Positions 46,460-62,725 of a stretch of DNA of 64,000 nt are shown piece after piece. Under the pieces are notes generated by a model. It was given only the letters and a program-made list of their open reading frames with translations, had not been told where the DNA came from and did no database searches. Each line of letters opens with the position of its first letter. Position 1 is the stretch's first letter. The position numbers and the translations under genes are program-made. Origin of the DNA: Escherichia coli (GTDB lineage: Bacteria; Pseudomonadota; Gammaproteobacteria; Enterobacterales; Enterobacteriaceae). The stretch lies in assembly GCF_041248615.1 (NCBI RefSeq), contig NZ_CP158426.1; one strand, 5' to 3'.

Positions 46460-47437
46460 TCAATCGCTCCCTTTCCGCCCTTCAGCTACAGGGTCGTTGT
46501 CGGCGATAACAAAACCTAAGTCCTGAGAGAATCTCTCTCGTGGGAATCCTTTAGCAGGTAAACCCATTGAATCATATCCACATCCGGGAACATTTGGTTT
46601 AGAGTCAATAAGGTCTGCAATTTGCCGAAGCCATGTTGATCCCGGACCAAGTCGTTTAACTAAGTACCAGATAATACAGATCGCGCTAAAAATCCTCTCG
46701 CAACTCTCTGGATGGAGATTAAGTCCGTCAAAGTATTCATTATCCGGTACTGGAACTCGGGGATGCTTTCTATTCCATATTCTGGAATGGTGAGCGCAAC
46801 GATTCCTTATGAGATTAAGGCACTTCAACCATTTTGCAAATGTCTGCTTATTATCAATGCCAAAACGACGTATAATTTTCCCCTGCATATGACCATTAAG
46901 CATCGCATAATATTTAGACATCTGACCAAAATCCCAGGTCTCCACCGCCACCCAAAATGGAATCTCCTTGCCTTGGCTTCGATGCCATTCAATACAGTCA
47001 TCTCTGCTTTCGTCTAATTTTACTTTTTGCTTATACACCCAATGCTCGAAGGCAGATGAGAATTTTGGATTAATGTATTTTGATGACATGTAGGCAAGTG
47101 GATCATTGCGACCAACCTCATGCGCGATGACTGAACGAACATGAATCTCTATTCTTTCGATAGCATCAATCATCAAAAGACGCAGTTTTTTGTCAAAAAG
47201 ATATAGATCGTACGTCTTCTCGAAACTGGTACCAGCAAGAAATCGGTCTGTTCTGTACGAAAGACCTTTATCTGTTGTCGCAATAATTCTTGATGGGTAC
47301 CAAAAACCTGACAATCGATAATATCCAACCTGCGACAGCTTACGTATCGCACGATTTCGATCATTGATAATCATGCCACGTTCAAGTAGCAATCCTAGCA
47401 ATTCGTGATAGTCCTTATGAGGCTTTGCGGCAATCAT
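46460..47437 (-). CDS. Abi_2-family (AbiD/AbiF-like) abortive-infection protein
   Basis: Start at internal ATG (MIAAKPHKDYHELLGLLLERGMIINDRNRAIRKLSQVGYYRLSGFWYP…); conserved blocks YYRLSGFW and LIRNRCAHHSRIWNRK are the hallmark of the Abi_2 (PF07751) family as I recall it. Confidence 0.65.
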   Translation of the reverse strand: MIAAKPHKDYHELLGLLLERGMIINDRNRAIRKLSQVGYYRLSGFWYPSRIIATTDKGLSYRTDRFLAGTSFEKTYDLYLFDKKLRLLMIDAIERIEIHVRSVIAHEVGRNDPLAYMSSKYINPKFSSAFEHWVYKQKVKLDESRDDCIEWHRSQGKEIPFWVAVETWDFGQMSKYYAMLNGHMQGKIIRRFGIDNKQTFAKWLKCLNLIRNRCAHHSRIWNRKHPRVPVPDNEYFDGLNLHPESCERIFSAICIIWYLVKRLGPGSTWLRQIADLIDSKPNVPGCGYDSMGLPAKGFPRERFSQDLGFVIADNDPVAEGRKGSD

Positions 47438-47809
47438 AGTGGCGAAACAAAAGATAATAAAAGGCCCGACCGTGAAACTCACATGCCTGAAATCGGCGGC
47501 GGAGAAACAGAGGATCGGGCTCGGTTGCCTGTAACTCTATCCGAAGTTATCCACATGTCAATGCACAGTTACTTAGGAAACTAACATAGATACTATCATC
47601 ACTCACGAAAAACCACTATATGTGGTTTTTATTCATATTGTTATCCACTACAGGCTGTGTCAATAACTTTTACCTATTAATTGGGTAATTTCTACATTTT
47701 CCTATGCTGGCTAGTTTCTCTACTGAAAAGTTGGCACTCCTTAATCGCTTTTCGGTTAATACTATCGGTCTTCATATTGCCAGCAGCATACGCCATCCGA
47801 TAATTTCTA

Positions 47810-48200: not shown

Positions 48201-48307
48201 CCCATCAACTGGGAGCGGATTTGAAATCCCGACCCAAGCTATGTACCAAATGCCATGTCTTGGATATATGATGATTGCCATTCTAAACAACGCTAAAGGG
48301 AGGGTTG

Positions 48308-48708
48308 GTGTGAATCAATTGAAGCGATTGGTTGTCTCCGGTTTATTATTTGCTTCTTTTGGAGCGAACGCTGAATGCTGGATTATTGGTGATCTGAAAG
48401 GACAAGAAGCCTCAAGTTCAGATGGGTATAACTATAAGTTATCATCTATACCAGATACCTTTCATTTGGTAATAAGTAAAGAGAAGGCGGATCTTATCTT
48501 GGCAAAAGATGGTATAGGTGGAGGTATTGATTATTACCCGCTATCTCCGAATGCCATGATGGGAAGAAGCTATCGAGATGGTCAACTGACGCTTGTCACA
48601 TGGGCAATCTCAAATGACGGAAAAGTGATCCATACACGAACAATTAGTCGATCTGATATAGGCTCATTTACAGGCTCATTTGTCGGCAATGTTAAAGGCA
48701 AGTGTTAA
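48308..48708 (+). CDS. small secreted/periplasmic protein (candidate superinfection-exclusion factor)
   Basis: GTG start at 48308 preceded by AGGGAGG; signal peptide (M)NQLKRLVVSGLLFASFGANA, then a hydrophilic ~110-aa domain. Function is inferred from position only. Confidence 0.45.
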
Positions 48709-48770: not shown

Positions 48771-50876
48771 TTATTGAGCTTCCTTTTGCGATGCTTGTGC
48801 TGCTGTGGTCAGTGATTGTGTGACCGTACTGATCGCTCTGTCATATGCTGTGCTACCTTTTGGCGTATTTGCCAGACGTAACAAGGCATTTCGTATAACA
48901 GGGCTTTCGTATGCCTTCGCTGCTCCGCCTACGGCACCAGCAGCAGGAACAACAAACGCAGCCGTTTTTAGCATCCCCGCTAATACTGCTGCGTTTATGA
49001 TGCCACCACCAACTAACAATCCATAAAGCTGCTGACCATTTAAGTTTTGAACGTTCGCTTTTGCCGCGTGTCTTGTATCGTTGAGGTATTTAATAACGCC
49101 GTCCAGTTCCTTTCCATGTACGCCTTTAAAGAAAGTTGCTGATTGCTTCCTGTTCCGGTGTAACGCATTAATAAACTTCTCAACACTGATATTTCCAGAC
49201 GGATCAGTCGCCTTATCTACAGCATTCTGAACTATAGCTGCTCGTGCGTTTTGCCTACCATTGTCATCCAGAAGCCTGTAAAGCTGAGAACGTTCTGATG
49301 GGCTTTGGCTAAAAACGAGTTTTGTTACATCCTCAGGCGTGGCCTTGCCGCTGGCTATTGCCTTTTGAACGCGCGTTCTTCCCATCATGTCATTGAATTT
49401 AGACCATGAGCGATCAACCCTTGCCATATTAATGGCTTCGTCTGCTCCAAGATTTTTGGCTACGGCTTTTTTCATATCCGCCGTATATGCCTTGTAGATA
49501 ATATCGCTGGCTTTCTGGAGCGTATCTTTATCAACAGTGTCAGATGACGCCATAAATCGCTTTCGAAGATCGGTTCTGTTTTCCCTCGCCAGACGCAGGT
49601 CATTTGGTCCGCTGGTGATATCGTCTTTAAATTGCTGCAAGACTTTTACCGCGGCTCTATCCTGAGATTTGCCCGGGCGGCTTAACACGGCAATCTGATT
49701 GTCGATAGCTTTTACCGTGTTTGAGAGATCGACAGGGGTATCCCCCATAGCGTCAATTATGCGGTTATATCGCTTTCCTGCTGCCTCAATGAATTTTTGT
49801 TGCCCTTTAGTCGCAGATTCATAAAGCTGTTTATCAGAAATGCCACCCAGACCATCGCTAAATGTTCTGACTAAATTTTCTCGTGCTTGTTGTTGATTCA
49901 GCCGATTCTTACCGGTTCCAAAAAAAGGAACTCTTTCGCCTAATGTCTGAGCCTGACTCTGCATAAAGGTTTTATCTTTCAACATGTCACTGGTCATTAA
50001 CGGCAGATTTCTTTCCGATGCAAAGTCGACAGCAGCCTTTGCTTCAGGCGACATATCACCACGAACAGCCCTCGAAACCGCACTCGCTGTATTTTCCAGC
50101 CCCTTACCAATACCACCAATGCCAGCAGAAATTACCGTTTGTAACGGATCAATATCTTCTCCACCAGCAAGGCTGGTGGCTCCCTGTAGTGCTAAATCTG
50201 TAGCTGCTGATTTCCCTATGGCCCCCAGCACCGTTCCGGCCCTGCCCGCTGGTGTAAACGCCAGCGCATTAGCCAGAAACGATGCCACGTCTTGCGGCGA
50301 TAAACCCGGCTTGTTCAGAGCATAATCACCGGATGGCAGGGAAACGATAGTGTTACCCTTCTCATCCTGCCTTAATTTCGCTCCCATGCTCTGAAGAATC
50401 TTTTCCTGAGATGCGTCAGAGCCGAAAAGTTGAGACCATCGAGCTTTTAGAGCATCCATGCTGAGTGAGGTTAACTCTGGGGCAAGGTCGACATTTTGCA
50501 GTCTCTCCATCTCTGGAGTCATTCGGCTTTCGCCTGTTATAGCATCGCGCATCGCAGCCCCAAGACTGGCTCCCTGTTCTGCTGAACGCTCAAGCCCCTC
50601 TCTTTGCTGAGTAGCTAACTTTGCATACCCTGACGCAAGAGAATTATCAGATGATGTATGTTGAATATTTTGAGTTGCTGATTGGTATCGGTCTATTTCA
50701 TTCGTTGATGGTAGTGGATAGGCAGCATAAAAAGCCTGCTTAGCCTGCTCTACACTTTCTCCGGCTTGCGGGGCAACGACTTCATTAAAGTATTGCTCCT
50801 GAGCCTGCGCTTTTTGTTCTGGTGCTAACGCCTGATACTGTGGAGAGGCGATAACATCTTTCCATGCTTTAGCCAT
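48771..50876 (-). CDS. large alpha-helical protein, possibly a P22 gp16-like ejection/internal virion protein
   Basis: 701 aa, A/Q/K-rich; its ATG overlaps the upstream stop (TAATG). Identified by size and order only, not by recalled sequence identity. Confidence 0.4.
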   Translation of the reverse strand: MAKAWKDVIASPQYQALAPEQKAQAQEQYFNEVVAPQAGESVEQAKQAFYAAYPLPSTNEIDRYQSATQNIQHTSSDNSLASGYAKLATQQREGLERSAEQGASLGAAMRDAITGESRMTPEMERLQNVDLAPELTSLSMDALKARWSQLFGSDASQEKILQSMGAKLRQDEKGNTIVSLPSGDYALNKPGLSPQDVASFLANALAFTPAGRAGTVLGAIGKSAATDLALQGATSLAGGEDIDPLQTVISAGIGGIGKGLENTASAVSRAVRGDMSPEAKAAVDFASERNLPLMTSDMLKDKTFMQSQAQTLGERVPFFGTGKNRLNQQQARENLVRTFSDGLGGISDKQLYESATKGQQKFIEAAGKRYNRIIDAMGDTPVDLSNTVKAIDNQIAVLSRPGKSQDRAAVKVLQQFKDDITSGPNDLRLARENRTDLRKRFMASSDTVDKDTLQKASDIIYKAYTADMKKAVAKNLGADEAINMARVDRSWSKFNDMMGRTRVQKAIASGKATPEDVTKLVFSQSPSERSQLYRLLDDNGRQNARAAIVQNAVDKATDPSGNISVEKFINALHRNRKQSATFFKGVHGKELDGVIKYLNDTRHAAKANVQNLNGQQLYGLLVGGGIINAAVLAGMLKTAAFVVPAAGAVGGAAKAYESPVIRNALLRLANTPKGSTAYDRAISTVTQSLTTAAQASQKEAQ

Positions 50877-52297
50877 TAATCACCCCATAGTGAAGAAAAG
50901 TTACTGCTGGCTGCTGGCTGTGATACCTGCTCAGATTGCGGCAATGTCTGCGACGAAGAAGCAGTTCCTCTGTCAACTGCTGAAATAACCCGCAAAGCAT
51001 CATAAGTTCGACCAGAAGCAGCTTTCAGCGAATTGAACTGGTTTTCCATCTTCCGGCGCTTGGTATCAATGGTTTTTGTGGAGTCGCCAGGCTGAGGGAA
51101 ATACATTTGATAATATTTTGACATTTCAGCAGGTGCGATAGCTGCCCCTGTTTCCTGACGGAGTATTGCCATTATTGCGTCATTAGCATTAACAACGTAT
51201 TGCTGCTCTGCTGGGCTGAGCGTTAAGTTAGCCAGCGTCCCATTACCCAAAGCATTATTAATGATCGCCACTCGCTGTGGGCTAAGCTGGTCTTTCAGTG
51301 TATCTATTGAATCAAGAGCATCCCTAACCCTGTATGCAAATCCAGCAGCTTTTTTAGCCCCATCTGGCGACTTTTCCATGATCTTTTGGGCTGTTGGCAA
51401 AGCTATTGGACGAAACCCATCTCCAGATATTGGCTGGTTTAGTTTTCCCTGCTCTTCACTTCCGTCTGTGTAGTATTTTGTGACAGTGCCATCATCGTTT
51501 TCTCTAACACTCATTAATTTTTTGGCGTTTGTATTAATTCCAGCCGCTGCCGCAAATGCCGCCGCCCCCTCTGGATCCGCCTTTAACATTTGAGCGTACT
51601 GATTGTAATTCTGCATTGCTGCTGTTGGTGCATATGCTGACGTTAACGCATTTGCTCGGTTAATATCCTGCCCTCTCGCCTGAAGTGCTTCGCTGGCCTG
51701 ATTGCTGCGGATTGTCTCTGCCAACTTGCCACGTTCAATATCCCGACCTTCCATTTGATCTTTGATATCGAAATACTTCTCATGACCGAGAGAAAACAGT
51801 GCCATACTACCAGCAAGCCGCTGGAATCCCTGTGGATCATTAACATGCATTTCGGCAACAGACTCAGGAGAAATTCCCAGGCGACGCATTTCATCTTCGT
51901 TATCTGCTATGAATTTTCCAAATGCCCCAGTTCCGAGCGAAGATGCGATTTGAGCACTAGTCGCAAGATGACCAATAGAATTTCTCTGGTCGTCATCAAT
52001 AAAGCCCATCCCTTTCTGAACGCTTTCAAATTCTTCTGGATACTCAGAAATAAGACTGCGCATTTTGTTTCTGTCTCCAGACTCAAAAGCCCCGGCATAT
52101 GCTTTCTGAAACTCTGCTTTACGCTGTTGTTGACGTGCCTGCTGATTAATCTCAGCAACGCCTCTTAGCCCCTGTAGCGCCATTAAACCTACGTTTGGCT
52201 GCTGCTGATACTGCACAGGCTGAGGAACGGAAGAACGAGGAGCATTATCATTTTGCGGTGCCATGCTAGGCAGCCCGCCAAGTTGCCATGTCGCCAT
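50876..52297 (-). CDS. possible P22 gp20-like ejection protein
   Basis: 473 aa (P22 gp20 is about 471 aa as I recall); TAATG coupling at both ends; Q/A-rich N-terminus. Confidence 0.4.
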   Translation of the reverse strand: MATWQLGGLPSMAPQNDNAPRSSVPQPVQYQQQPNVGLMALQGLRGVAEINQQARQQQRKAEFQKAYAGAFESGDRNKMRSLISEYPEEFESVQKGMGFIDDDQRNSIGHLATSAQIASSLGTGAFGKFIADNEDEMRRLGISPESVAEMHVNDPQGFQRLAGSMALFSLGHEKYFDIKDQMEGRDIERGKLAETIRSNQASEALQARGQDINRANALTSAYAPTAAMQNYNQYAQMLKADPEGAAAFAAAAGINTNAKKLMSVRENDDGTVTKYYTDGSEEQGKLNQPISGDGFRPIALPTAQKIMEKSPDGAKKAAGFAYRVRDALDSIDTLKDQLSPQRVAIINNALGNGTLANLTLSPAEQQYVVNANDAIMAILRQETGAAIAPAEMSKYYQMYFPQPGDSTKTIDTKRRKMENQFNSLKAASGRTYDALRVISAVDRGTASSSQTLPQSEQVSQPAASSNFSSLWGD

Positions 52298-52974
52298 TAG
52301 AATCCAAGCCCCCCAACAAGACCAATAAGCCCACCACCAATAGCGCCGGCCGCAGTTCCTATTCCAGGAACAACGGAACCAAGTTGCGCACCCGCTAAAG
52401 CGCCTGATGCTGCCCCACCAATACCACGCGCAAGACTGGATGGCTGCTGCGCCTGACCTGCACGAATAGCGCCAAGCCCCTGCAAGAGTTGTCCGGTATT
52501 ATTGGCGTAGTTTTGCCCTGCCGTTGCCTGCCCTGATGCCGCATTCATCCCGACATTTAGCAGGTTTCCATAATTTTGCATTTGCCCACTAAGCCAATTG
52601 TTATAAAGCATGGGCGCAATGGAAGATAACTGGTTACTGGTAGCTGTTGAGCCAAGCCCCCCGGTAGCTTCTGCTGAGACAAGGTTCTGATAACGGGCCT
52701 GATCTGCCTGTGTTTTATATAAACCAGAACCAAAGAAATCATTCGCGGCTTTATTCTGCCCTTCCAGAGTCATCAGTCCTTGTAGTTGTTGTAAAGCAGG
52801 CAATCCGACTTCTGCATACGGCTTGAGATTATTCATCACCGTATTCCACTGCTCGCGCTGCAAATCAATTGCCTGCTGCTGGGCCTTCGCCTGAGCTTTA
52901 GAGGCACCACCATCACCGCCTTTTTCGTATACGGCACGATTGAGATGTTTATGAGCTATATGGGTAATTAACAT
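52297..52974 (-). CDS. possible P22 gp7-like ejection protein with Gly-zipper C-terminus
   Basis: 225 aa (P22 gp7 about 229 aa); C-terminal Gly-rich hydrophobic segment GIGGAASGALAGAQLGSVVPGIGTAAGAIGGGLIGLVGGLGF suggests membrane insertion. Confidence 0.4.
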   Translation of the reverse strand: MLITHIAHKHLNRAVYEKGGDGGASKAQAKAQQQAIDLQREQWNTVMNNLKPYAEVGLPALQQLQGLMTLEGQNKAANDFFGSGLYKTQADQARYQNLVSAEATGGLGSTATSNQLSSIAPMLYNNWLSGQMQNYGNLLNVGMNAASGQATAGQNYANNTGQLLQGLGAIRAGQAQQPSSLARGIGGAASGALAGAQLGSVVPGIGTAAGAIGGGLIGLVGGLGF

Positions 52975-53429
52975 TCGCTGAATTCCTTATATTGTTGCCG
53001 AGTTAACTGATAAAGCGTTACGCCGACGGGTTTACCACATCTGATATAAGCATCATCAAGGTGACCAACACGGGTAGCGCCAAGCAAACGGATAATTGCC
53101 CGTCCGTATTTCGTGGTGTCAGGAACCATAGTGATGCTGTTAAGGAATGGTGAGTTTTCGAGAAGCCATTTGCAGAATAATCGATGCCCTTGCAGTGCAT
53201 ATTCACCACGGAATCCGGGGTCGTACACCGCATGGCATTCAACAATGCTATGCCAGAAGTTACGCACTTCATGAACGCCAGCCAGCACCAATCCTTCGTA
53301 GATGCCGAGATATACCGCATCAGGCTTGATGTAGTACGTGTGCCCCGGCTCAACAATATTTTCGGTATTGCCAGGATCGTTAAGAAAGGCCTGTAATCGC
53401 ACAGGGTTATCAATAAATTTTAGTTCCAT
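52968..53429 (-). CDS. hypothetical protein, first large gene of the operon (gp14-like by position)
   Basis: 153 aa, ATG start, 7-bp overlap with the next gene. Confidence 0.35.
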   Translation of the reverse strand: MELKFIDNPVRLQAFLNDPGNTENIVEPGHTYYIKPDAVYLGIYEGLVLAGVHEVRNFWHSIVECHAVYDPGFRGEYALQGHRLFCKWLLENSPFLNSITMVPDTTKYGRAIIRLLGATRVGHLDDAYIRCGKPVGVTLYQLTRQQYKEFSEC

Positions 53430-53445
53430 GCGATGCCATCCATTT

Positions 53446-53607
53446 TCACATACAGCCTGCCAGCGCCTTATCTATTAACCCTCGAGCAATTTCATGCAGA
53501 GTTGGCGCTACTCCAATTCCTGATTTTTTACGCTGCTCTTCCTGAATTTTCTTTATCGCTTCCATTTGCTTCTCACTTATCAATACCGGCTTTACTGAAA
53601 TAGCCAT
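53446..53607 (-). CDS. small ORF (53 aa) heading the operon
   Basis: Below the 60-aa track cut-off; ATG at 53607 preceded by AGGGGG; MAISVKPVLISEKQMEAIKKIQEEQRKKSGIGVAPTLHEIARGLIDKALAGCM; 16 bp upstream of the next gene. Confidence 0.35.
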   Translation of the reverse strand: MAISVKPVLISEKQMEAIKKIQEEQRKKSGIGVAPTLHEIARGLIDKALAGCM

Positions 53608-53620
53608 AACGCCCCCTTAG

Positions 53621-53640
53621 AACTGTATAAAACAACAGTT
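53621..53640 (-). promoter_or_regulatory. LexA-box-like palindrome upstream of the operon
   Basis: AACTGTATAAAACAACAGTT = CTGT-N8-ACAG with perfect AACTGT/ACAGTT arms, 14 bp upstream of the small ORF start. Confidence 0.45.
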
Positions 53641-53747
53641 ATTATAGTTTCACAAATCGCAATATTCATCATCGTAATTGCAAAATATGAAACAGATAGC
53701 ACAAAAAAATGCCACCGCTCAGTAGCTGGTGGCATCGTTCTGTGTGT

Positions 53748-53775
53748 CAGGTTTTGACAGGTTTTTTATGGACTC
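53748..53775 (+). terminator. hairpin plus T-run (plus-strand terminator-like) followed by conserved ATGGACTC motif
   Basis: CTGTCAGGTTTTGACAG then GTTTTTTATGGACTCTAAAAACT; a near-identical tail follows the hairpin at 59577-59606. Confidence 0.4.
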
Positions 53776-54053
53776 TAAAAACTATATTTATGGTGTCGCA
53801 TTACCCTTCACGGCAGGCGCTTTTCAGTTCTGCCCTTGCTTCTGGCTCCATTGGTAATTTGATTCGCGATCAGCTATGCGGATGGTTTGCTGAACAGGCA
53901 TAACAACTTCTCAGTGGCTGTTTTCTGAACTACGAAAATTTCGTAGTGCTCACTTTCAAAAACGTCACGCCCTTGTACACAGGATTTTACGAAAGTCTCG
54001 TAAAACACTCTCTGATGCCAGCCAGGTGTTGTGCGCATCAATTCAGTCACATT

Positions 54054-54169
54054 GTGTTGGTTCAAAATACCGTGTTGTTGGTTCAGTGTTGGTTCAATAA
54101 AAAGAATAAAATCCTTATAAAACAATACTCTTTACAAATTGAACCAACTGAACCAACTGAACCAACACC
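54054..54169. repeat. iteron cluster B, the inverted counterpart of cluster A
   Basis: GTTGGTTCA x3 then TGAACCAAC x3; 54130-54169 (CTTTACAAATTGAACCAACTGAACCAACTGAACCAACACC) is the exact reverse complement of 45764-45803; lies 22 bp past the primase-helicase stop. Confidence 0.8.
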
Positions 54170-54191
54170 TTTTCTACGCACATGAAGAAGC

Positions 54192-56948
54192 TCATTCTTC
54201 AGATGAGTTATAATCTCCTGGCTGGTAATTGAGTACATAAACGTTTATTTGTCGTCCCTGAATACGTGGTGATTTTCTTTGGTATCCACGACCGCTGTTT
54301 GGTGGGGTTAGCATCCCGGCTTTTTTCAACACTTCAGCAAACTGTTTTGCGTTGAAACCACATGCGATCTCCTTTTCAAATGTGGCCGGGAATGTGTAGA
54401 AAATCATTGGGCTTTCGTCATGTTCTCCACGCTGACGGTATCCGGCTAAATCTTTGATGGGCAAATCTGCCGGGCTGTATGGAAATGGTGCAAAACGGCT
54501 AAGCCCATAGGCATTAAGAAATGCCTCCGTTTGTTCAATAATCTGCTGATGCTCTTTGTTACCTGTGCCGAACTCGCGCAACCATGCGTTATAGCTGTGC
54601 TGTATCGCATCACGGCATGTCTGAGCATCCCAGCCTGTTACAACCTCGCCTAACAACAATGCGGCCTCCAGAATGGCAAATCGCGCGGCTACACGGTGAA
54701 CCTGCTCACCATAATCGGATGGGATCAGGCTTCTCCATCTGCTTTCGCAGTCACGAACGGTTTTAATAGCCTGTTGCTGGTGGTCTGCCAGCCATTTAAT
54801 CCACTCACGCCCGGACGCGCCGTGGTGATGCTGGTAAGCGTCTTTCAGTGCGTCTGCGTGCTGTTTTCCGTTCTGGTAATCGTGAAAGCGTACTGCTTTA
54901 CTCAACGGAATATTCAGCAGTCGCACCAGTTGCCCGGCTTTGGTTTTTCGCCCGGAAGTAGCGATAAATGTTTCTAAATCCATTTCTCCGGTGCTGATTG
55001 CCACTGTACGCCAGCGTTTTAGATCCCGGTTTCCACCATCTTTAGCGCCTTGCAGTTTCCCTACACCGTTAAATAACGCATAGGCAGACTGTGAAACGCT
55101 GACAGGATCAGCGCCCTGACCAACTTCATCAAGCGGCATTAGTCCGTCATTGTGGGCGGCGGCCTCATTTGCCAGCCCCAGCGCGGTTCCGTACCACGTC
55201 AGCCGCAGTAAATCAGGGTTGCCGTATAAGCTGCTCGCCACGTTTGCCGTGGTGGTCTTACCTGCGCTCGACTGCTCATAGAAATGAATGCCGAACCCGT
55301 CAGCGCCCACCAGCCCAATCAATGGCGCTGCCAGTGCTGCGCCGATCCCGGTCATCATTGAATAGTTACCAAAGGCCAGACGCGCCACGTTATCACGCCA
55401 GCTTTTCGCGCTCCCTGAGACGGTATATCCGGCTGCGGCTGAGCTTCTCCCGCTGAACAGCACAGGATTTTCAGGTGTTCCGATGATTTCCCCATCAGGC
55501 ATGATGTACGCTCCGCATTGCCAGCCAGTGGCATGAGCAACACGCCACAATTCACGAGAGCCACTGCGTTGTAGCCAGTCTGCCAGTATTGCTCTGAGGC
55601 TGCTTTTGGTCGTGACATTTACCCCACCAGCTTTAAGTGTGCGCCATCCTTCACGTTCACCAATATCAGCCAGTGGAATGGCAGCGGTTGTCGGCGTTTC
55701 AGAACCAAACGACAGCCAGCGAAGAATGAGATACTGGTCTTTATCGTCTCTGCCAGTACCGATAACGCTTAACGGAGAACATAACCAGCTTTCGTTATTG
55801 ATGATTTCTCCACTCTGGCTGTCAGCTCTCGGAGATACCCAATAAATACCATCCTCGCGGCTTTCTATTCTTGGTTTCAGTGGATCGGTATCCATAACCT
55901 TAAAATCGCTTCCCTCAATGGTCTGTGGCTCCTGTTTCACGCCATTACCCTGTGGTTGGTACATTGACTTATTGAACGCTTCTGTGGCGCATTTAATGCC
56001 GTGTTTTTGGTGGTAATCATTCCAGTCTGCTTTGTGATCTGTCGGGGGTAATGCCACCCATCCAGAAACAGATAAAGCTGCTTTTTCTGCTGCTATTCTC
56101 CCCGTGTTTTGTCTTCCTTCGCTGTGGTCGTTATCCGCAGCAATGATGATTTGTGCTGAAGGAAATTTATCCCGCAGTACCTGGGCGACATATAACAGGT
56201 TCCCGGCATCAATCGCCGCCACTGTCAGCGCCTCTGGACGAATTAAATGGGCAGATAATGCCGTTGCCAGCCCTTCTGCGATTAAGATGCTCTGTGTTGT
56301 TTCTGGTGCGTTTATGGCGTGATATGCCCCCCGCTTTGCTGAACCTGTCAGGAGTCTTTTTTCACCATGTGAGGTAATAGTCTGTGCTGCTGTGACTGCG
56401 CCGGATTTATCCACCAGCGCCAGCAACAGAGATCCATCGGGCAACACGGGGAATGTAAAATCACCTACCCCTTTCGCAACCAGATAATCAGATTTGCCGT
56501 TTACAGCCTTTCTGCGCATGTCATCAAACTGACGGGAAAACGTATCCCGTCTTTGTTGTTCGTCCTTCTCTGCCCTTTTCAGGCGCTCCTGTTCGCGTCG
56601 CTGGCGCTCGGTTTCCAGTTGTTCCCGTTTCTGGCTGGTGGCTTCTGGTGTTTCCGTTGTCCGGTAATCAATACCCAGAACATCAGCGGCAAGAAGCGCC
56701 GCCTCTGTTGTGTCGCAGTTATTTACGCGTTTAATTAAATCCAGCCCATCACCAGCGCCGCACTGATTACAGATGAAGCTACCGCGCCCGTTGTCATCGA
56801 ACCGGAATCGATCTTTGCCCCCACATGCAGGGCAGGGAGCATGACGGCGCGGAGAGTCAGGGACATTTATGTTCAGGCAGCCCAGCACATGAGGCCAGTT
56901 GTTTTCAGACGCACTGATAACCTGACGGATAAGATCAATGTTTCGCAT
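54192..56948 (-). CDS. primase/helicase of the integrative element (zinc-ribbon + TOPRIM + P-loop NTPase)
   Basis: About 918 aa from ATG at 56948; CPACGGKDRF…CNQCG zinc ribbon, TOPRIM-like IIIAADNDHSEGRQ, Walker A YEQSSAGKTT; iterons directly downstream. Confidence 0.8.
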   Translation of the reverse strand: MRNIDLIRQVISASENNWPHVLGCLNINVPDSPRRHAPCPACGGKDRFRFDDNGRGSFICNQCGAGDGLDLIKRVNNCDTTEAALLAADVLGIDYRTTETPEATSQKREQLETERQRREQERLKRAEKDEQQRRDTFSRQFDDMRRKAVNGKSDYLVAKGVGDFTFPVLPDGSLLLALVDKSGAVTAAQTITSHGEKRLLTGSAKRGAYHAINAPETTQSILIAEGLATALSAHLIRPEALTVAAIDAGNLLYVAQVLRDKFPSAQIIIAADNDHSEGRQNTGRIAAEKAALSVSGWVALPPTDHKADWNDYHQKHGIKCATEAFNKSMYQPQGNGVKQEPQTIEGSDFKVMDTDPLKPRIESREDGIYWVSPRADSQSGEIINNESWLCSPLSVIGTGRDDKDQYLILRWLSFGSETPTTAAIPLADIGEREGWRTLKAGGVNVTTKSSLRAILADWLQRSGSRELWRVAHATGWQCGAYIMPDGEIIGTPENPVLFSGRSSAAAGYTVSGSAKSWRDNVARLAFGNYSMMTGIGAALAAPLIGLVGADGFGIHFYEQSSAGKTTTANVASSLYGNPDLLRLTWYGTALGLANEAAAHNDGLMPLDEVGQGADPVSVSQSAYALFNGVGKLQGAKDGGNRDLKRWRTVAISTGEMDLETFIATSGRKTKAGQLVRLLNIPLSKAVRFHDYQNGKQHADALKDAYQHHHGASGREWIKWLADHQQQAIKTVRDCESRWRSLIPSDYGEQVHRVAARFAILEAALLLGEVVTGWDAQTCRDAIQHSYNAWLREFGTGNKEHQQIIEQTEAFLNAYGLSRFAPFPYSPADLPIKDLAGYRQRGEHDESPMIFYTFPATFEKEIACGFNAKQFAEVLKKAGMLTPPNSGRGYQRKSPRIQGRQINVYVLNYQPGDYNSSEE

Positions 56949-57306
56949 CACCGTACCCCACGTGGTCTATAGCGTTTGCGATATGGCTAACCAGCATCTG
57001 CCACTTGGTTATTCCGTAATCAGTCAGCATGCCATCATTGTTTAGCCACATATCAAATTCAGCGGTTGTCGCAAGTTTCCACTTATCGCCGTGGACAGTC
57101 CTCATTGCTGGGTACATGAATGCGCAAATCAGATCACAAACATCTGACGGCTTCAGAGATGTAGTAATGGTGCGTCCCTCTGGCGTCTGAATTGCCATTT
57201 TCTCTTCACCAGTAGAATGAAGGTTATGAATCCACACAGCACCAGCAATCTTTGCCACCTGCTCTCCGATTGCGGAGCTAAGCGCCATTTCTGCATTTTC
57301 ACGCAT
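56935..57306 (-). CDS. hypothetical small protein
   Basis: 123-aa ORF overlapping the primase start and the upstream ORF end. Confidence 0.4.
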   Translation of the reverse strand: MRENAEMALSSAIGEQVAKIAGAVWIHNLHSTGEEKMAIQTPEGRTITTSLKPSDVCDLICAFMYPAMRTVHGDKWKLATTAEFDMWLNNDGMLTDYGITKWQMLVSHIANAIDHVGYGDAKH

Positions 57307-57640
57307 GAGAACCTCCCGCTACAGTTGCGCCCATGTCATTAACCATGCTTTGCCATATCTCACGCCCGACGTCAGTCAATCCGTCCTTAGTGACGCAACG
57401 CTCAAGAAGCTCGATCCCCACGGTTTCCCACTGCGGGTAGAACACTTTCATGGCTGCCAGTGTGTAGCTATCGATCAGGCTGCGAACGCCTTTTACTCCA
57501 TTGACGATTTCCACACGTACGGCCTCGCCGTCCGCATCAACCATGAAATAGTCCCCGCCGCTGGTGGAGGTAATGTGGTTATACAGTGCCGACGCATACT
57601 TATTTGCCAGCGCATTCAGTCGGAAATTTTTAGTAATCAT
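57299..57640 (-). CDS. hypothetical small protein
   Basis: 113-aa ORF in the same overlapping chain. Confidence 0.4.
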   Translation of the reverse strand: MITKNFRLNALANKYASALYNHITSTSGGDYFMVDADGEAVRVEIVNGVKGVRSLIDSYTLAAMKVFYPQWETVGIELLERCVTKDGLTDVGREIWQSMVNDMGATVAGGSHA

Positions 57641-57650
57641 GGCTCCATCC

Positions 57651-58253
57651 TCAGTGCGTCACTGGTTCCGCTGGCATGCCGTTTTCATTCAGTTCAGCTA
57701 TAAAGCTGTTGTGAAGTTCAGCAAGCGTTTCACGACCAAATGGAGTCAGTGCTCCTTGTTCCACATCCATCATGGCTCTGTAGAAAATGATGGCGCGTTC
57801 TGTGCCAGACTCGATGCCAAAACGTTCTATCATCGCGCCCTCAATGTTGTTTGCCATAGCGAGGCGCTCTGCTACTGGATACAGCGGCATGGCGACGATG
57901 CCGTTGGAATAAACAGCCACTTCGGAAGGATTGCCAGTATCATCAATGATGCTGACAGTGCCGTTTTCCTCTCTCATTTCCAGCATGAATACTGTTGCGA
58001 TCAGCCATCTCCACATAATGACGTTATGCTGTGATGTGTAATCGAAATATCCCTGGTTGCCGCCATCGGCTATAGCGAGATGTATTGACATGCCTTCATC
58101 TGGTTTATCGTCATAATCCCCGGCATCCAGACGATTTACGGCATCAATATATGAGACGGTCTCAACGCGTTCTGTCATGCCATCGTTGCTGCGGTGCATG
58201 ATGTTTACGCCGTCAGGCGTTGCTTCTGCATGGAAGGTTAAGAAATTATTCAT
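57651..58253 (-). CDS. hypothetical protein
   Basis: About 200 aa from the internal ATG (MNNFLTFHAEATPDGV…), whose start overlaps the stop of the upstream ORF; the longer 235-aa frame is probably an over-extension. Confidence 0.4.
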   Translation of the reverse strand: MNNFLTFHAEATPDGVNIMHRSNDGMTERVETVSYIDAVNRLDAGDYDDKPDEGMSIHLAIADGGNQGYFDYTSQHNVIMWRWLIATVFMLEMREENGTVSIIDDTGNPSEVAVYSNGIVAMPLYPVAERLAMANNIEGAMIERFGIESGTERAIIFYRAMMDVEQGALTPFGRETLAELHNSFIAELNENGMPAEPVTH

Positions 58254-58467
58254 GTTTCGCCTCGCCTGAATGATTCTGTAACTCATATTTGCCCAACAAT
58301 TCGTCCGCTTCCTGAATAGCTTCTGGTACGCCATTGAGCAGTGACATAACCGCGCCAATCATTAACTTGTCTCTGTTGCTGGGGCTGGCCCCTTCAAGCC
58401 AGAACCCTAAAACAGTCTGAACCTGTTCGATGCGACATTGCGCTTCAATGAGCTGGATGTTGGTCAT
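58246..58467 (-). CDS. hypothetical small protein
   Basis: 73 aa; overlaps both neighbours. Confidence 0.4.
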   Translation of the reverse strand: MTNIQLIEAQCRIEQVQTVLGFWLEGASPSNRDKLMIGAVMSLLNGVPEAIQEADELLGKYELQNHSGEAKHE

Positions 58468-58727
58468 TTCGCACTCTCCACATCGATTAAACTGATATCT
58501 ATCAGGGAGGTAACTTTTTGTAGCCAGCTATTGATTACTGTCGCCTGCTCCCCTCCCACCGAGGGAATAATCTCATTCATCACATGAACCAGACCTGTGC
58601 GCGCTCTGGTAAGCCGTTCAGTCGCGCAATCTGCGGGAGTGAATGTGTCTGGATATGGCTCTTCACTCCCCAGCAATGATTCAATTTCCAGCTCACACGG
58701 ATGACGATAAATTAAGTTGATATTCAT
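58464..58727 (-). CDS. hypothetical small protein
   Basis: 87 aa; 4-bp overlaps. Confidence 0.4.
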   Translation of the reverse strand: MNINLIYRHPCELEIESLLGSEEPYPDTFTPADCATERLTRARTGLVHVMNEIIPSVGGEQATVINSWLQKVTSLIDISLIDVESAK

Positions 58728-58918
58728 TTTTCACCCCCAAGAATTACCAGCTCTGCACGGGCATCGTTAACCAAAGATGAGCACGCTTTAATCGCATCCA
58801 CGACATCAGTAGCGTCCATTTCTTCAGCCGAAAGACTGACAGCAACCAGGACAGCCGCTGCTTGCTCGATTAATTGAAGTGCGGACGTAAGGCGAGGGGT
58901 ATTAATTGAGTTATTCAT
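58724..58918 (-). CDS. hypothetical small protein
   Basis: 64 aa; 4-bp overlaps. Confidence 0.35.
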   Translation of the reverse strand: MNNSINTPRLTSALQLIEQAAAVLVAVSLSAEEMDATDVVDAIKACSSLVNDARAELVILGGEK

Positions 58919-59126
58919 TGGTTGCCCCCGTTTTTACTGGCATTTCGCCACCTTCCAGCAGGAAATGAACGTCACGAACGGCGAGATCCAATATCGCGAG
59001 TAACGCCTTCAGTTTTTCGTCTCGTGAGGGAGAGTTGCTCACCAGAATGTCATTAATCACTTCTGTCAGTGTGATGATCTGGCTTGTGCGTTCGAGGGGG
59101 TCCATATGCACATCGTAGGTTTTAAT
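58911..59126 (-). CDS. hypothetical small protein (C-terminal part of the tracked 342-aa ORF)
   Basis: Internal ATG gives MIKTYDVHMDPLERTSQIITLTEVINDILVS…, a plausible 71-aa protein; the upstream part of the long frame looks like out-of-frame translation of a structured GC-rich region. Confidence 0.35.
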   Translation of the reverse strand: MKTYDVHMDPLERTSQIITLTEVINDILVSNSPSRDEKLKALLAILDLAVRDVHFLLEGGEMPVKTGATNE

Positions 59127-59329
59127 CATGTGCCACCTCCATGCGGATACGACCAGCAAAAAAGCAGACGTGATCGCGCACCAGAGAACGGCGAGCATCG
59201 CGTTCAGACTCGGCAGCAATATGATGAATTTTGGCGGTAATTGTCGGGCAATCGCGGCGAACTGCGGCGATAATCCAGATAAATTGCGGTTTTTGGGTAG
59301 GGGTAGTAGCCAGCATGTGGCAGCCTCCT

Positions 59330-59610
59330 TGATTGATGGTTTATAGCCACCGCCGGAGGTCCTAAGCTCGCTGGCGGTGGACTGTACAGGGTTAGGACTA
59401 CTGGCAATCAAGGAAACCAGCCTGACCGAAGTCAGCCCCATACAGCCCACCATTGATAAGGTGTGCGTGTGCGCCGATACAAAAAAAGACGCTGGCGCGT
59501 CATGTATCGCCTCGATTGCCTGCGGGGTCCTAATCCCGGCACCCGTTTTATGAGGTGCCTTATAACCATAAACCGTGTTGCCGCATAACGGCAAGCTCTT
59601 TTTTATGGAC
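59330..59610 (+). ncRNA. candidate structured RNA / immunity-type region (C4- or P4 CI-like antisense RNA?), ending in a plus-strand terminator
   Basis: GC-rich segment with hairpins (CCACCGCC…GGCGGTGG), two copies of GGTCCTAA, long-range complement CCTTGATTG/CAATCAAGG, and a hairpin plus T-run at 59577-59606; sits inside an otherwise minus-strand gene chain. Confidence 0.3.
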
Positions 59611-59932
59611 TCCGAAAACTCACTATTGGAAGAACCAGATGCACAATACATCGCGCTCATTTCGTTAACGTCACGCGCATGGACGAAGGTTTTTGTGGAG
59701 TCACTACGCGAGAAGAGAAAGCCATCTACGACCAGAAATTCTCTGGCGCAGCCGCTGACCTTCTCAACGCTAACACCATCGACCGTAATTTCTGACATGG
59801 TTAAGGCATCCGCTCCTACCACCAGCAAATGACAAACTTTGCTTGTATCTGCTGTATTAATGCCTGACTTTGCTGTCATATTGCTGGATTTTGGCGACAT
59901 ACCAGCCAGTGAAAATATCTTCTTCTGGACGG

Positions 59933-60115
59933 TTAGCATTTGTTAACCTCCGCGAACTCCTTCATGAAGCGCGCCAGCGGTTGTACGCATGGCGATTGAT
60001 ACCCGTCGCGATAAAACGTCACTCGGTTGTGAGACACGCTTTCGACAGTAACGAGTGCTCCGTGGGCATCTTTGTAGCGTTTTTGTGGTTGTGGTATTCC
60101 TGTTGGCTTAGACAT
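59933..60115 (-). CDS. small phage protein (DUF4222-like, tentative)
   Basis: 60 aa from the internal ATG: MSKPTGIPQPQKRYKDAHGALVTVESVSHNRVTFYRDGYQSPCVQPLARFMKEFAEVNKC. Confidence 0.4.
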   Translation of the reverse strand: MSKPTGIPQPQKRYKDAHGALVTVESVSHNRVTFYRDGYQSPCVQPLARFMKEFAEVNKC

Positions 60116-60941
60116 TGAGCGCCTCCAGACGCTTGGCGAGCCAGCGTTGCGACAGGTGGGTGAGTTCTCCTTTGCGCTGCTCATATTCCATGCCCATATC
60201 AATTAACGTGATATTGGTGCTTTCGAGATATGAGAGGTGCTCAAGCTGTTCTGCGTTCATATGGTCGCGAGGTTCGCCAGAATAGCCATTTATCCGCGCC
60301 CACTGCTTAGCAGTTAGCCCTCCAAGAACGATACGAGAAATCATATTGCTCTCGTTTGTGTAGTGGTGTTGCTGCGTCGTTTTCCCCTGCTCGGCACGGG
60401 CCATATTCAGCGCATCGCACATTGGCTTAAAGTTGTTTGCGGCACTGATACGGGCTTTTAGCTGGCGACGATAGCGGGCGGCGATTTCAGGCACGCTACG
60501 CTGTAATTCTTCCTCGCACTGGATGAAATAACGACGGATAGCGCGACCCTGATCATTGCGTTCGATCATTGCCAGTTCTTTCGCCATTCCGACACTTAAC
60601 AGATAGTCTTTGCCGGGTCTGCCAGACTGCTTAATCTTGCTGTAAGCCGCGCCATTCGGGCTTTTCCCCAAATTTGGGGAAATTGTTTTATGGACTGAGT
60701 AATCGTGCCCAATGGTGAAGTCATATTCAGAGATGCGATCAGTGATCCATGTAGAGAAGTCTTTTCCCACGCCCAACGCTTTGTGTAACGCTTTTGCGCT
60801 AACAATATTGGTTTCACGCCCACCGATGTGACCAGGAATAACCGGGACAATTGCGGCAAATTCATTACCGTTAATTGTGCCCAGAGAGGCGTTCAGATGA
60901 GGGGCGGCCTCAGAAATTAATCTGCTTTTTTCGATGTTCAT
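60108..60941 (-). CDS. phage antirepressor-like protein (AntA-type N-terminus, KilAC-type C-terminal region)
   Basis: 277 aa; N-terminal block …NIVSAKALHKALGVGKDFSTWITDRISEYDFTIGHDY…; central …LLSVGMAKELAMIERNDQGRAIRRYFIQCEE… Domain names from memory. Confidence 0.55.
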   Translation of the reverse strand: MNIEKSRLISEAAPHLNASLGTINGNEFAAIVPVIPGHIGGRETNIVSAKALHKALGVGKDFSTWITDRISEYDFTIGHDYSVHKTISPNLGKSPNGAAYSKIKQSGRPGKDYLLSVGMAKELAMIERNDQGRAIRRYFIQCEEELQRSVPEIAARYRRQLKARISAANNFKPMCDALNMARAEQGKTTQQHHYTNESNMISRIVLGGLTAKQWARINGYSGEPRDHMNAEQLEHLSYLESTNITLIDMGMEYEQRKGELTHLSQRWLAKRLEALNV

Positions 60942-60953
60942 TTTCAGTCTCCG

Positions 60954-61385
60954 TTAGGCGGCGTTAAACGCGTCCGGGTAGAGTTTCAGAATGTCGGCAA
61001 TTTCCTGCTGAGAAAGTCCGTTGTGATCATTTATGTTCGCAAGATGGTTAACATGAGTGATCACTTTCAGAACATCACCACGGCAGGAGAAACGGTAGCG
61101 AAGGTGTGTTCCGATACCATCAGGATTCTTTTCGTCGATACGCTCCAGAGTGATTCCAAGCTGGCGTTCTAACTCTGTTGCATAGTTACGACCAGAAGAC
61201 AGACGGCAGTAGCGAAGAATGTCATTTTCTGTCCATCCCTCTATACCAGTACGCAGCATATAGACTCGGGCACGATGCTTTTTCGGTGTGCGCTTTGGTG
61301 CTTGAAGGGATTTTGTAAGGGGCGTAATATCAGATACGCGAATATCTGAATTAGCCGCCTGTAATGGGCGGTTTTTCTTTTCCAT
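60954..61385 (-). CDS. hypothetical protein
   Basis: 143 aa, immediately upstream of the antirepressor-like gene. Confidence 0.4.
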   Translation of the reverse strand: MEKKNRPLQAANSDIRVSDITPLTKSLQAPKRTPKKHRARVYMLRTGIEGWTENDILRYCRLSSGRNYATELERQLGITLERIDEKNPDGIGTHLRYRFSCRGDVLKVITHVNHLANINDHNGLSQQEIADILKLYPDAFNAA

Positions 61386-61603
61386 CAGGCCACCTTCCCG
61401 CGGCGTTCTGCCAGCCAGTTATTAATTTCCACCGCATCAAACGCAGTCACGTTATCTGTTAGCTTCACTGGGCGTGGAAGAGTGCCATTTTTAACCCATC
61501 TATCAATAGTAGGCAGTGAAACACCTAGCAATTCCGGCATGCGAAAGCGACGGATGTATCCAGTTGTTGGGATAGCTGATGATGCTGGCTTGTGTGCTGT
61601 CAT
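61385..61603 (-). CDS. AlpA-family (HTH_17) regulator/excisionase-like protein
   Basis: 72 aa, ATG start; …GYIRRFRMPELLGVSLPTIDRWVKNGTLPRPVKLTDNVTAFDAVEINNWLAERR fits the AlpA pattern. Confidence 0.6.
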   Translation of the reverse strand: MTAHKPASSAIPTTGYIRRFRMPELLGVSLPTIDRWVKNGTLPRPVKLTDNVTAFDAVEINNWLAERRGKVA

Positions 61604-62074: not shown

Positions 62075-62725
62075 TTAGTCGAGATCGTGGACAGCTAATA
62101 AAGCCCGTGAGATTTTTTCTAGGAATGTGGCTTTTGCTATTCCTTTATGGGATATCCCTTCATCCTTGATTAAGGTTTCTATGTCACGGTATATAGCTGT
62201 GCGATTAGGTTTCCCATTTTGGATGTAGGAAGATGAGCCTGATTTTTTTATCAGCAGATGTACTATCAACCCCATCATTTTCATTGTCCCGTTTTCCTCA
62301 TCCTGCTTTCTATGCTGCCCACGTCCGCTGCGGTTGGTTTCTTTGATGTAGTTTACTAACTGGAGTCCTCCAAGGTTTCGGGCTTTTTCTTCCCAGCCCT
62401 TGGTGCCACGCAAATCATCAATCGCTTCTGATATTTTCTGAACAATTATTTCTGGTGTATTTGTGTCAATAAATGGGTAAGAAGCTAAGAAAATATCAAG
62501 GGCATGGCAAGGCTCGTCTTTACTAGTTTTTTCACCTCTGTACACCTTGATAGCTCTGGCAAGATGAGTTCTGACAAAATCGACATATTCGAAATTTTCC
62601 TCAGGCACATCGCTAATGCGCATAGATGGGTTTAGGCCAGCCAAGGCCACAGCCATTTCATGAGGGGTAATCGATACAGATGAACAAAGCCGTTCGATTG
62701 GCGATTTTCTCAAGATGTTGTTCAC
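62075..62725 (-). CDS. hypothetical cargo protein directly downstream of the integrase
   Basis: 216-aa ORF whose GTG start overlaps the integrase stop (GTGA); no recognisable domain. Confidence 0.4.
   Translation of the reverse strand: MNNILRKSPIERLCSSVSITPHEMAVALAGLNPSMRISDVPEENFEYVDFVRTHLARAIKVYRGEKTSKDEPCHALDIFLASYPFIDTNTPEIIVQKISEAIDDLRGTKGWEEKARNLGGLQLVNYIKETNRSGRGQHRKQDEENGTMKMMGLIVHLLIKKSGSSSYIQNGKPNRTAIYRDIETLIKDEGISHKGIAKATFLEKISRALLAVHDLD

Follow-up and report, generated by a model that had tools for sequence, protein, structure and literature searches.

The window analysed here is a stretch of 64,000 nucleotides (nt) of Escherichia coli DNA (contig NZ_CP158426.1) that carries, at its right-hand end, a mobile island of about 19.2 kb. 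Within this island, four consecutive genes on one strand (48771-53429) encode proteins of 153, 225, 473, and 701 amino acids (aa). These sizes and their order are exactly those given by a first-pass annotation of the sequence, which had guessed from them that the genes correspond to the gp14-gp7-gp20-gp16 set of phage P22. The same four coding sequences are present in RefSeq, where they are labelled “DUF2824,” “hypothetical,” “phage DNA ejection protein,” and “injection protein.” The open reading frames (ORFs) overlap head to tail in the order 14-7-20-16, as in P22: the ATG of the 225-aa ORF falls within the 3′ end of the 153-aa ORF, and the motif TAATG is found at the 7/20 and 20/16 junctions. 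The island itself is an EcCIMP1-like phage-inducible chromosomal island (PICI), and as such probably a satellite of P22-like E. coli podophages (features in Table 1).

The guess made from size and order is borne out by profile and pairwise searches. Each of the four proteins matched the expected PHROG family (E 1e-66 to 1e-162), which disposes of the alternative that they are unrelated membrane-targeting proteins; no NCBIfam family matched any of them. Against the P22 and Sf6 proteins, taken from annotated genomes, BLASTP gave 23-56% identity (E 1e-6 to 1e-95). The gp7-like protein is 54-56% identical to gp7 of P22 and Sf6 (54-57% when phage Kapi1 is included), the N-terminal half of the gp20-like protein is 38-45% identical to its P22 and Sf6 counterparts, and the gp16-like protein is 30-33% identical to theirs. 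The gp14-like protein shows 23% identity to P22 gp14 (E ~1e-6) and 83% to Kapi1 gp14, and is thus of the Kapi1 type. Among cultured phages, the nearest gp16 relative is that of phage N7 (67% identity), the nearest full-length gp20 relatives are those of the APSE phages (52%), and none of the phages compared has a similar whole four-gene set. A phmmer comparison of the gp20-like and gp16-like proteins with PDB sequences gave no match at E 0.01 or better. At the level of sequence, the homology of the four genes with P22 gene 14 and with the genes for the ejection proteins gp7, gp20, and gp16 is genuine. In P22, the product of gene 14 is an assembly factor and is not itself part of the virion.

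The proteins also share internal features with their phage counterparts. The first-pass annotation had described all four as rich in alanine and glutamine; this applies to the 225-, 473-, and 701-aa proteins (A+Q of 25.8, 22.0, and 21.4%, respectively) and not to the 153-aa protein (8.5%). The glycine zipper that it had noticed at the C-terminus of the 225-aa protein is present as five overlapping GxxxGxxxG motifs (residues 187-222) and aligns with the Gly-rich C-terminus of P22 gp7. The gp20-like protein has the conserved MATWQ N-terminal domain, also common to P22 and Sf6, followed by a variable C-terminal half, and the gp16-like protein contains a hydrophobic segment at about residues 625-660. 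Families, order, and overlapping junctions are therefore common to the island and to the P22/Sf6 operon (genes 14-7-20-16 in P22, genes 10-13 in Sf6). The differences lie in the setting, since the island module is not preceded by tail-needle (gene 26), head-completion, coat, or portal genes and comes instead after a primase gene, an origin, a terminator, and a 53-aa ORF, and in the large divergence (gp14 23%, gp16 about 30%).

Table 1. Features of the island, in window positions.
Feature	Position	Strand	Remarks
Left 21-bp attachment-site core TTATTCAATGTTCTGAATCTG	44954-44974		displaced original 3′ end of yicC
EcCIMP1-like PICI satellite island, ~19.2 kb	44975 to ~64178	-	runs 178 bp beyond window end
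PerC/ANR-family regulator	45443-45730	-	accessory gene, also in EcCIMP1 (PMC11773190)
Second iteron set (GGTTCAGTT GGTTCAGTT GGTTCAATT and further repeats)	45760-45892	+	inverted copy of origin region
AbiD-family abortive-infection gene	46460-47482	-	defence cargo; PADLOC AbiD, E 8.4e-58; phrog_2158
Small secreted-protein gene	48241-48708	+	phrog_2651; signal-peptide-like N-terminus; RefSeq start 48268
gp16-like ORF, 701 aa	48771-50876	-	phrog_770 (DNA transfer), E 8.4e-162
gp20-like ORF, 473 aa	50876-52297	-	phrog_917, E 2.3e-110
gp7-like ORF, 225 aa	52297-52974	-	phrog_598 (DNA ejection), E 3.2e-70
gp14-like ORF, 153 aa	52968-53429	-	phrog_651 (head morphogenesis / DUF2824), E 1.2e-66
53-aa leader ORF	53446-53607	-	precedes module in all islands examined; 78-100% identical across islands
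Rho-independent terminator GCCACCAGCTACTGAGCGGTGGC, then T run	53703-53733	-	separates replication region from ejection operon
Imperfect (20/22) second copy of CUS-3-type terS motif	53762-53783	-	upstream of ejection operon
Iterons in inverted sets flanking AT-rich spacer; probable origin	54053-54173	-	directly 3′ of primase gene
P4-alpha-like primase-helicase (TOPRIM + DUF927)	54192-56951	-	phrog_1139, E 2.4e-178
C4 antisense RNA	59370-59457	-	Rfam RF01695, 80 bits
isrK small RNA	59482-59558	-	Rfam RF01394, 63 bits
25-nt stretch identical to part of CUS-3-type terS	59598-59622	-	candidate second pac site
Untranslated 118-nt fragment of P22-type small-terminase gene	59674-59791	+	candidate pac site
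AntA/AntB-type antirepressor	60108-60941	-	PHROG scan and RefSeq annotation
AlpA/excisionase-like helix-turn-helix regulator, 72 aa	61385-61603	-	phrog_66 “excisionase and transcriptional regulator,” weak match, E 3.8e-7
Tyrosine integrase, yicC 3′ end-specific	62722-63990	-	phrog_1, E 1e-63

The 21-bp core of the attachment site (att) of the island, TTATTC(G/A)ATGTTCTGAATCTG, is the 3′ end of yicC; it is duplicated, with the second core at about 64179. Window positions 44745-44974 match yicC in island-free genomes, and when the empty site (DH5a, L010) is aligned with the two junctions, the alignments overlap by 21 bp. The island is bordered by dinD and, past the integrase at its other end, by yicC, rph, and pyrE, so no morphogenesis genes are hidden beyond the end of the window, where they might have been sought. 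PHROG scans of island ORFs of at least 80 aa gave no match to any portal, coat, scaffold, terminase, tail, or lysis family. The first-pass annotation was hence right that the element lacks these genes, and yet the homologues of its gp7, gp20, and gp16 are virion proteins in P22. Its view of an element free of packaging genes holds for genes, but untranslated fragments of two small-terminase genes lie at 59598-59791. From the integrase end, the island carries the integrase, a hypothetical gene, the AlpA-like regulator, another hypothetical gene, AntA/B, DUF4222, an “ash family” region, small ORFs, the TOPRIM/DUF927 primase, the iterons, the terminator, the 53-aa ORF, and the genes of gp14, gp7, gp20, and gp16, and it ends with the secreted-protein gene on the opposite strand, AbiD, a hypothetical gene, and PerC.

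The published member of this family is EcCIMP1, which Pick, Stadel & Raivio (ISME J 2025, PMC11773190) describe as a PICI of 19,963 bp that E. coli MP1 carries at tRNA-Thr. Its excision and circularisation occur only when the P22-like phage vB_EcoP_Kapi1 is present and require AlpA and its own integrase; it does not lower the titre of Kapi1 and it increases the superinfection immunity of lysogens (PMC11773190). In that work, the module was treated as “hypothetical, DNA-transfer-like” genes with a possible role in packaging (PMC11773190). The window island is assigned to this family by comparison with the EcCIMP1 backbone (L007), to which it is 98.6% identical in nucleotide sequence over 52137-59422 and 97.7% identical over 59479-61395. 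It is thus a further member of a family published in 2025 and not categorically new. The two islands have a similar size (about 19-20 kb) and the same gene order, from int through the primase, the 53-aa ORF, gp14, gp7, gp20, gp16, and accessory genes to PerC, and EcCIMP1 carries the same pac-like fragments. Homology ends at 61395, beyond which integrase, AlpA, and att site are different: EcCIMP1 is inserted at tRNA-Thr/proA with the core TCCTATTATC, the window island at the yicC 3′ end. The accessory cargo also differs, AbiD being found in the window island. Within the module, gp14 and gp7 are 99 and 98.7% identical to those of EcCIMP1, whereas gp20 is 48% identical over its N-terminal 187 aa only and the two gp16 alleles differ to the point that BLASTP detects no similarity between them (701 aa in the window vs. 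906 aa, annotated as a lytic transglycosylase, in EcCIMP1).

Of the explanations offered by the first-pass annotation, a satellite that keeps only ejection proteins fits best, given that the close relative EcCIMP1 has been experimentally shown to be a satellite of a P22-like phage. The fusion of a deleted P22-like prophage with a P4-like backbone may describe the distant origin of the element but not its present state, the module being conserved, mobile, and under purifying selection. Conservation was examined in 16 islands (the window island, L002, L003, L007, L022-L027, L041, L072, L073, L102, L188, and L189), located at two attachment sites, and the ejection module is present in all of them, though a two-gene module is interrupted by IS3 in UTME-12 (L189) and gp20 is truncated in L041. 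The same block as in the window (98-100% aa identity) is found at the EcCIMP1 att site, tRNA-Thr, in E. coli EC5502 (L002), where the island has another integrase and its primase is of the DUF5906 type. The islands of GN04275 and ETEC6 at yicC have only gp20 (447 aa) and gp16 (705 aa), of another type that is 75% (gp20) and 41% (gp16) identical to the Kapi1 proteins. A gp20 and gp16 pair without gp14 or gp7 is seen in L003, L188, L024, L025, L072, and L073. Islands with gp20 and gp16 only match the published behaviour of a cognate gp16/gp20 and an interchangeable gp7 (PMC10461980).

Selection on the module can be followed between island copies. The ratio of non-synonymous to synonymous divergence (dN/dS) is 0.07-0.15 for gp14, 0-0.12 for gp7, 0.08-0.12 for gp16, and 0.12-0.58 for gp20, where the differences are few; it is 0.05-0.11 for the primase. 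The diverged islands L026 and L027 (primase 75% identical, G+C 52-53%) keep all four genes: gp14, gp7, and gp20 are intact ORFs with saturated dS and a dN of 0.12-0.34, and a gp16 relative is detected by tblastn at 65-66% identity. The module is therefore a conserved part of the island family, under purifying selection (dN/dS ~0.1). In 5426 complete E. coli genomes, the region from the origin to the 53-aa ORF was found in 454, the pac-bearing region in 483, and the exact four-gene block, with intact ORFs, in 180.

Homologous operons had been expected to serve as a check, according to whether they are always embedded in full podovirus prophages. Among the best 80 gp20 loci in IMG/VR, 71 do lie in full P22-like phage genomes, and nine lie in islands with a primase and without a structural gene; of these loci, the six that are most closely related to the window gp20 are all in islands. 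Island-type gp7 (at least 88% identity) occurs in islands only, phage gp7s being 54-61% identical to it, and by these identities the lineage of the window gp7 is specific to islands. When one genome per species was scanned for the island gp7, a method that detects close relatives only, 19 loci were obtained, of which one is of the island type (Escherichia sp.), 17 are full P22-like prophages in eight other genera, and the last is a spurious short match in Streptomyces.

The other end of the module is exchanged more freely, and gp20/gp16 alleles are swapped between near-identical island backbones. The gp20 and gp16 alleles of the window island show 23-34% identity to those of Kapi1 or none that is detectable, gp16 in particular 23-25% or none. 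In contrast, the window gp16 is 92.7% identical in aa sequence to gp16 of a degraded P22-like prophage at argW (L006), and its gene is 92.6% identical in nucleotide sequence over 1.9 kb, from about 230 nt into the gene to 17 nt past the stop. The module thus recombines with helper-type phages and is mosaic, as it is in P22-like phages.

Upstream of the module, the primase gene is directly followed by iterons (GGTTCAGTT GGTTCAGTT GGTTCAATT) in inverted sets, which are probably the origin of replication. The second set, closer to the left end of the island, contains six iteron matches against 1.25 expected, and 55 nt of it are 95% complementary to 54119-54173. Between them, the two sets enclose 8.2 kb that hold AbiD, the secreted-protein gene, and the ejection operon, and the same pair of sets is found in EcCIMP1 and other islands. 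With its own primase and an adjacent putative iteron origin, the island has the replication feature of PICIs. No family matched the 53-aa leader ORF in the PHROG scan. A consensus promoter scan upstream of the module performed no better than on shuffled sequences, and a helper-type late promoter or Q-utilisation site was dropped as a candidate, blastn of 53430-54191 against 50,697 phage records having returned four short unrelated matches.

How the island may reach helper capsids is suggested by the two terminase-gene fragments. By local blastn, window positions 59685-59791 are 87% identical to P22 nt 4-110, an interval that begins at the first base of the annotated P22 pac (nt 4-25) inside gene 3, so that the 22-mer GAAGGTTTTTGTGGAGTCACTA at 59685-59706 occupies the position of the mapped pac site. 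Exact copies of this 22-mer are present in eight islands and, at nt 268-289 of a P22-type terS, in three IMG/VR contigs of P22-like phages. The 29 nt starting at the pac position (the 22-mer and seven more) are identical to the three phage contigs, with seven mismatches further on. A 38-codon ORF at 59679-59795 (+) was rejected as a TerS-derived peptide, its differences from phage terS being nearly all non-synonymous. The other fragment comes from a second TerS type, that of CUS-3, phiv205-1, vB_EcoP-720R6, and N7: an exact 23-mer of this stretch is shared by 18 islands, a diverged one among them, and by 57 contigs of P22-like phages, in each of which it falls within terS. Diverged islands L026 (14290-14400) and L027 (14340-14440) have the pac-like part only, as two tandem 31-nt units, placed downstream of gp16 instead of near the Ant region. 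We infer that the terS fragments are borrowed pac sites for two helper terminase specificities, P22 and CUS-3. Besides the second imperfect motif copy listed in Table 1, a further one lies inside the gp20 gene (51071-51092; 15 nt exact, about 0.2 such matches expected) and could be due to chance. No Sf6/Kapi1-type terS fragment was found in the island, where chance 14-mers only were seen; since the TerS of Kapi1 is of the Sf6 type and has no counterpart there, the island offers Kapi1 no recognisable pac copy, which may explain why EcCIMP1 is poorly transferred by this phage.

Compared with other satellites, the island shares several features with the classical Gram-negative PICIs EcCICFT073 and EcCIEDL933: an integrase, an AlpA regulator, a primase with adjacent origin, a PerC-like gene, a specific att site, and defence cargo at the far end. 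Those PICIs lack structural and lysis genes, which holds for the island in a loose sense, its homologues of gp7, gp20, and gp16 being set aside. According to the literature, classical Gram-negative PICIs exploit cos-type lambdoid siphophages and carry a cos site and Rpp packaging-redirection genes after the primase. In their place, the EcCIMP1-like family has ejection-protein genes after the primase, together with pac-like terS fragments. Satellite P4 is similar in its alpha-like primase-helicase, its P4-type integrase, its C4/CI-type RNA immunity, the helper's packaging signal on satellite DNA, and its two iteron regions (ori/crr), whose layout the paired inverted iteron regions of the island resemble. 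However, its helpers are P2-like myophages with cos ends vs. P22-like podophages with headful packaging for the island, and no island ORF had a PHROG match to Sid, Psu, Delta, or Epsilon. The PICI-like element (PLE) of Vibrio cholerae is reported to have a pac site like that of its helper ICP1 (bioRxiv 10.1101/2024.04.22.590561) and would resemble the island in this. Capsid-forming PICIs (cf-PICIs) are also satellites that encode virion proteins of their own. They make capsid, portal, and terminase and steal tails only, whereas the island would make internal ejection proteins and take the rest from the helper; no capsid, portal, head-tail connector, or terminase of the cf-PICI type was found in it by PHROG scans or RefSeq annotation. 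Neither PLE nor cf-PICIs share sequence with the island.

The remaining features concern regulation, cargo, and context. The helix-turn-helix regulator sits where EcCIMP1 has its master regulator alpA. The C4 and isrK RNAs are parts of an immunity and regulation region and fall inside an annotated 342-aa “ash family” ORF (58911-59939), the N-terminal part of which is therefore probably non-coding. This region resembles the c4-icd-ant immunity arrangement of P1/P7, and the MP1 annotation divides the corresponding region into an Icd-like gene and a partial ash gene. The secreted-protein gene directly follows the gp16-like gene, a position which in P22 is that of sieA. The gene at this opposite-strand position differs between islands, and in L002 (8061-8675) its product, of 204 aa, faintly resembles SieA (E 4e-4). 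At the accessory end, other members of the family have ImmA/IrrE, Panacea-domain, or other genes. Direct repeats of 24 nt containing ATGTACAC are found at 45035-45058 and about 64048-64071 (L001 16265-16288 and 35278-35301), about 60-110 bp inside each island end, and are probably arm-type binding sites of the integrase. Elsewhere in the window, two stretches have a very low G+C content (31-36%; 3001-5000 and 19001-21000), one of them a few kb from selC (tRNA-SeC, 25487-25581, -), a classical island insertion site; these stretches may be other horizontally acquired segments.

Taken as a whole, these data lead us to favor, with moderate confidence, a satellite that is packaged through borrowed pac sites and that loads helper capsids with its own DNA-delivery conduit. 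During growth of a P22-like helper, the island would excise and replicate from its iteron origin with its own primase. The helper terminase would recognise the borrowed pac sites and package the DNA by the headful mechanism, giving about two island copies per head. The gp14, gp7, gp20, and gp16 made by the island would meanwhile enter the procapsids built by the helper, much as P22 hybrids take up foreign ejection proteins, and in the next cell the ejected proteins would form a trans-envelope conduit for the satellite DNA. A matched gp20/gp16 pair of its own would make delivery independent of the allele of the helper and may allow escape from SieA-type injection exclusion in recipient lysogens, which is possibly the most attractive specific benefit.

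This proposal draws on the genetics of P22. All three ejection proteins (E-proteins) are needed for DNA entry, and P22 virions can incorporate functional E-proteins from P22-like phages that are very divergent (Leavitt et al., PMC10461980). The gp16 and gp20 proteins must be a cognate pair, gp7 is exchangeable, and SieA blocks injection via gp16/gp20, for transducing particles as well (PMC10461980). These properties fit the islands, because the gp20/gp16 pair is always kept while gp14 and gp7 are sometimes absent, and because this pair varies between otherwise identical islands and strongly differs from that of the known helper. A bolder extension, possible in our eyes and on balance doubtful, sees the module as a swappable “entry cassette” that re-equips helper capsids with a matched gp20/gp16 conduit, to which four-gene islands would add gp7 and the gp14 assembly factor, so that satellite DNA enters cells excluding the helper's ejection proteins, for example SieA lysogens, the turnover of alleles reflecting an arms race.

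Several points weigh on the other side. EcCIMP1 is transduced in Kapi1 particles at a low frequency, about 5e3 per ml, in experiments that left the module genes untouched (PMC11773190), and partial escape from SieA is found with HK620-type E-proteins only and is thus not general for divergent alleles (PMC10461980). The helper already supplies a full ejection set, so that the satellite's need for its own is an argument and not an observation, and delivery could suffer if one capsid held two gp16/gp20 sets that are not cognate. Virion loading of the island proteins and an effect of the module on transfer are predictions, and pac function is proposed from the position of the terS fragments and their selective retention; the perfect identity over 29 nt, within a fragment that is 92% identical, is not statistically decisive alone. 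Finally, the sole promoter candidate for the module is a -10-like TATAAT downstream of the terminator.

A rival explanation is that the proteins act against the helper. Satellite ejection proteins would then compete for procapsids, and the poorly infectious non-cognate mixtures would lower the spread of the helper, as capsid remodelling does elsewhere. P22 with only the gp16 or only the gp20 of Sf6 indeed gives <1e4 plaque-forming units although the foreign protein is assembled (PMC10461980), and the low or undetectable identity of the island gp20/gp16 to those of the known helper would suit such poisoning. However, the Kapi1 titre after induction is unchanged by EcCIMP1 (PMC11773190), poisoned capsids would carry satellite DNA too, to the satellite's own cost, and the gp14 and gp7 kept in some islands would be superfluous, which makes this explanation improbable. 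The same proteins might instead protect the resident cell, as a form of superinfection exclusion, by disturbing at the inner membrane the conduit assembly of incoming P22-like phages, without being virion components. In favor of this, some EcCIMP1 genes are up-regulated in Kapi1 lysogens (PMC12922286), and gp16 is membrane-active (PMC10461980), the hydrophobic segment of the window protein being in keeping with this. But the family has dedicated defence cargo (AbiD) and a variable gene at the sieA position, the gp14 assembly factor and the full phage operon layout fit a virion role better, and a decoy role for ejection proteins is without known precedent; we regard protection, likewise, as an unlikely function.

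Less credit still can be given to the view that the module is inert and was left behind when a P4-like island recombined with a P22-like prophage. The recent exchange of gp16 with a prophage and the decayed copies in UTME-12 and L041 are what such a remnant would show, but 180 genomes have this allele set with intact ORFs, no sampled island lacks a module, selection as measured by dN/dS is the same as on the primase, and the module has survived swaps of integrase, primase, and att site as well as divergence to synonymous saturation, with an island-specific gp7 lineage. This makes the lack of a function very unlikely. The suggestion of Pick et al. that the proteins redirect or assist packaging of island DNA is the hardest to credit. 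It takes account of the position of the module after the primase gene, which in classical PICIs is that of the packaging genes (PMC11773190), and of the PHROG label “head morphogenesis” given to gp14 and part of gp16. Yet all four proteins belong to ejection families and bear no resemblance to TerS, Rpp, Ppi, or capsid-size factors, P22 can package its DNA without these genes (established P22 genetics; PMC10461980), and the terS-derived DNA sites can account for packaging recognition.

Three aspects of the present analysis are new: the finding that the genes form a complete gp14/gp7/gp20/gp16 set, and that this module is conserved, under selection, and subject to allele swapping; the integration site (yicC) and the allele combination of the window island; and the two terS-derived pac-like sites, which would supply a candidate for the packaging mechanism left open by the EcCIMP1 study (PMC11773190). 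In the literature on satellites with ejection proteins, the EcCIMP1 paper alone was found. As far as the literature was searched, these islands are thus the sole described type of satellite that keeps the internal ejection proteins of a podophage and no other part of the virion, and islands of this family are present in about 8-9% of the complete genomes of E. coli. The analysis yields a testable model, with packaging via P22- and CUS-3-type terminase sites and delivery via a satellite conduit. If the module is indeed an entry cassette, then, together with the two borrowed pac sites, it would represent a third satellite strategy beside capsid remodelling and capsid formation, in which the whole virion is stolen and only the internal DNA-delivery machine is replaced. 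The family also provides a natural experiment on the incorporation of foreign ejection proteins, on the co-variation of gp16 and gp20, and on SieA-like exclusion as a driver of diversity. On the practical side, these islands move defence genes (AbiD) and virulence regulators of the PerC family between E. coli strains.

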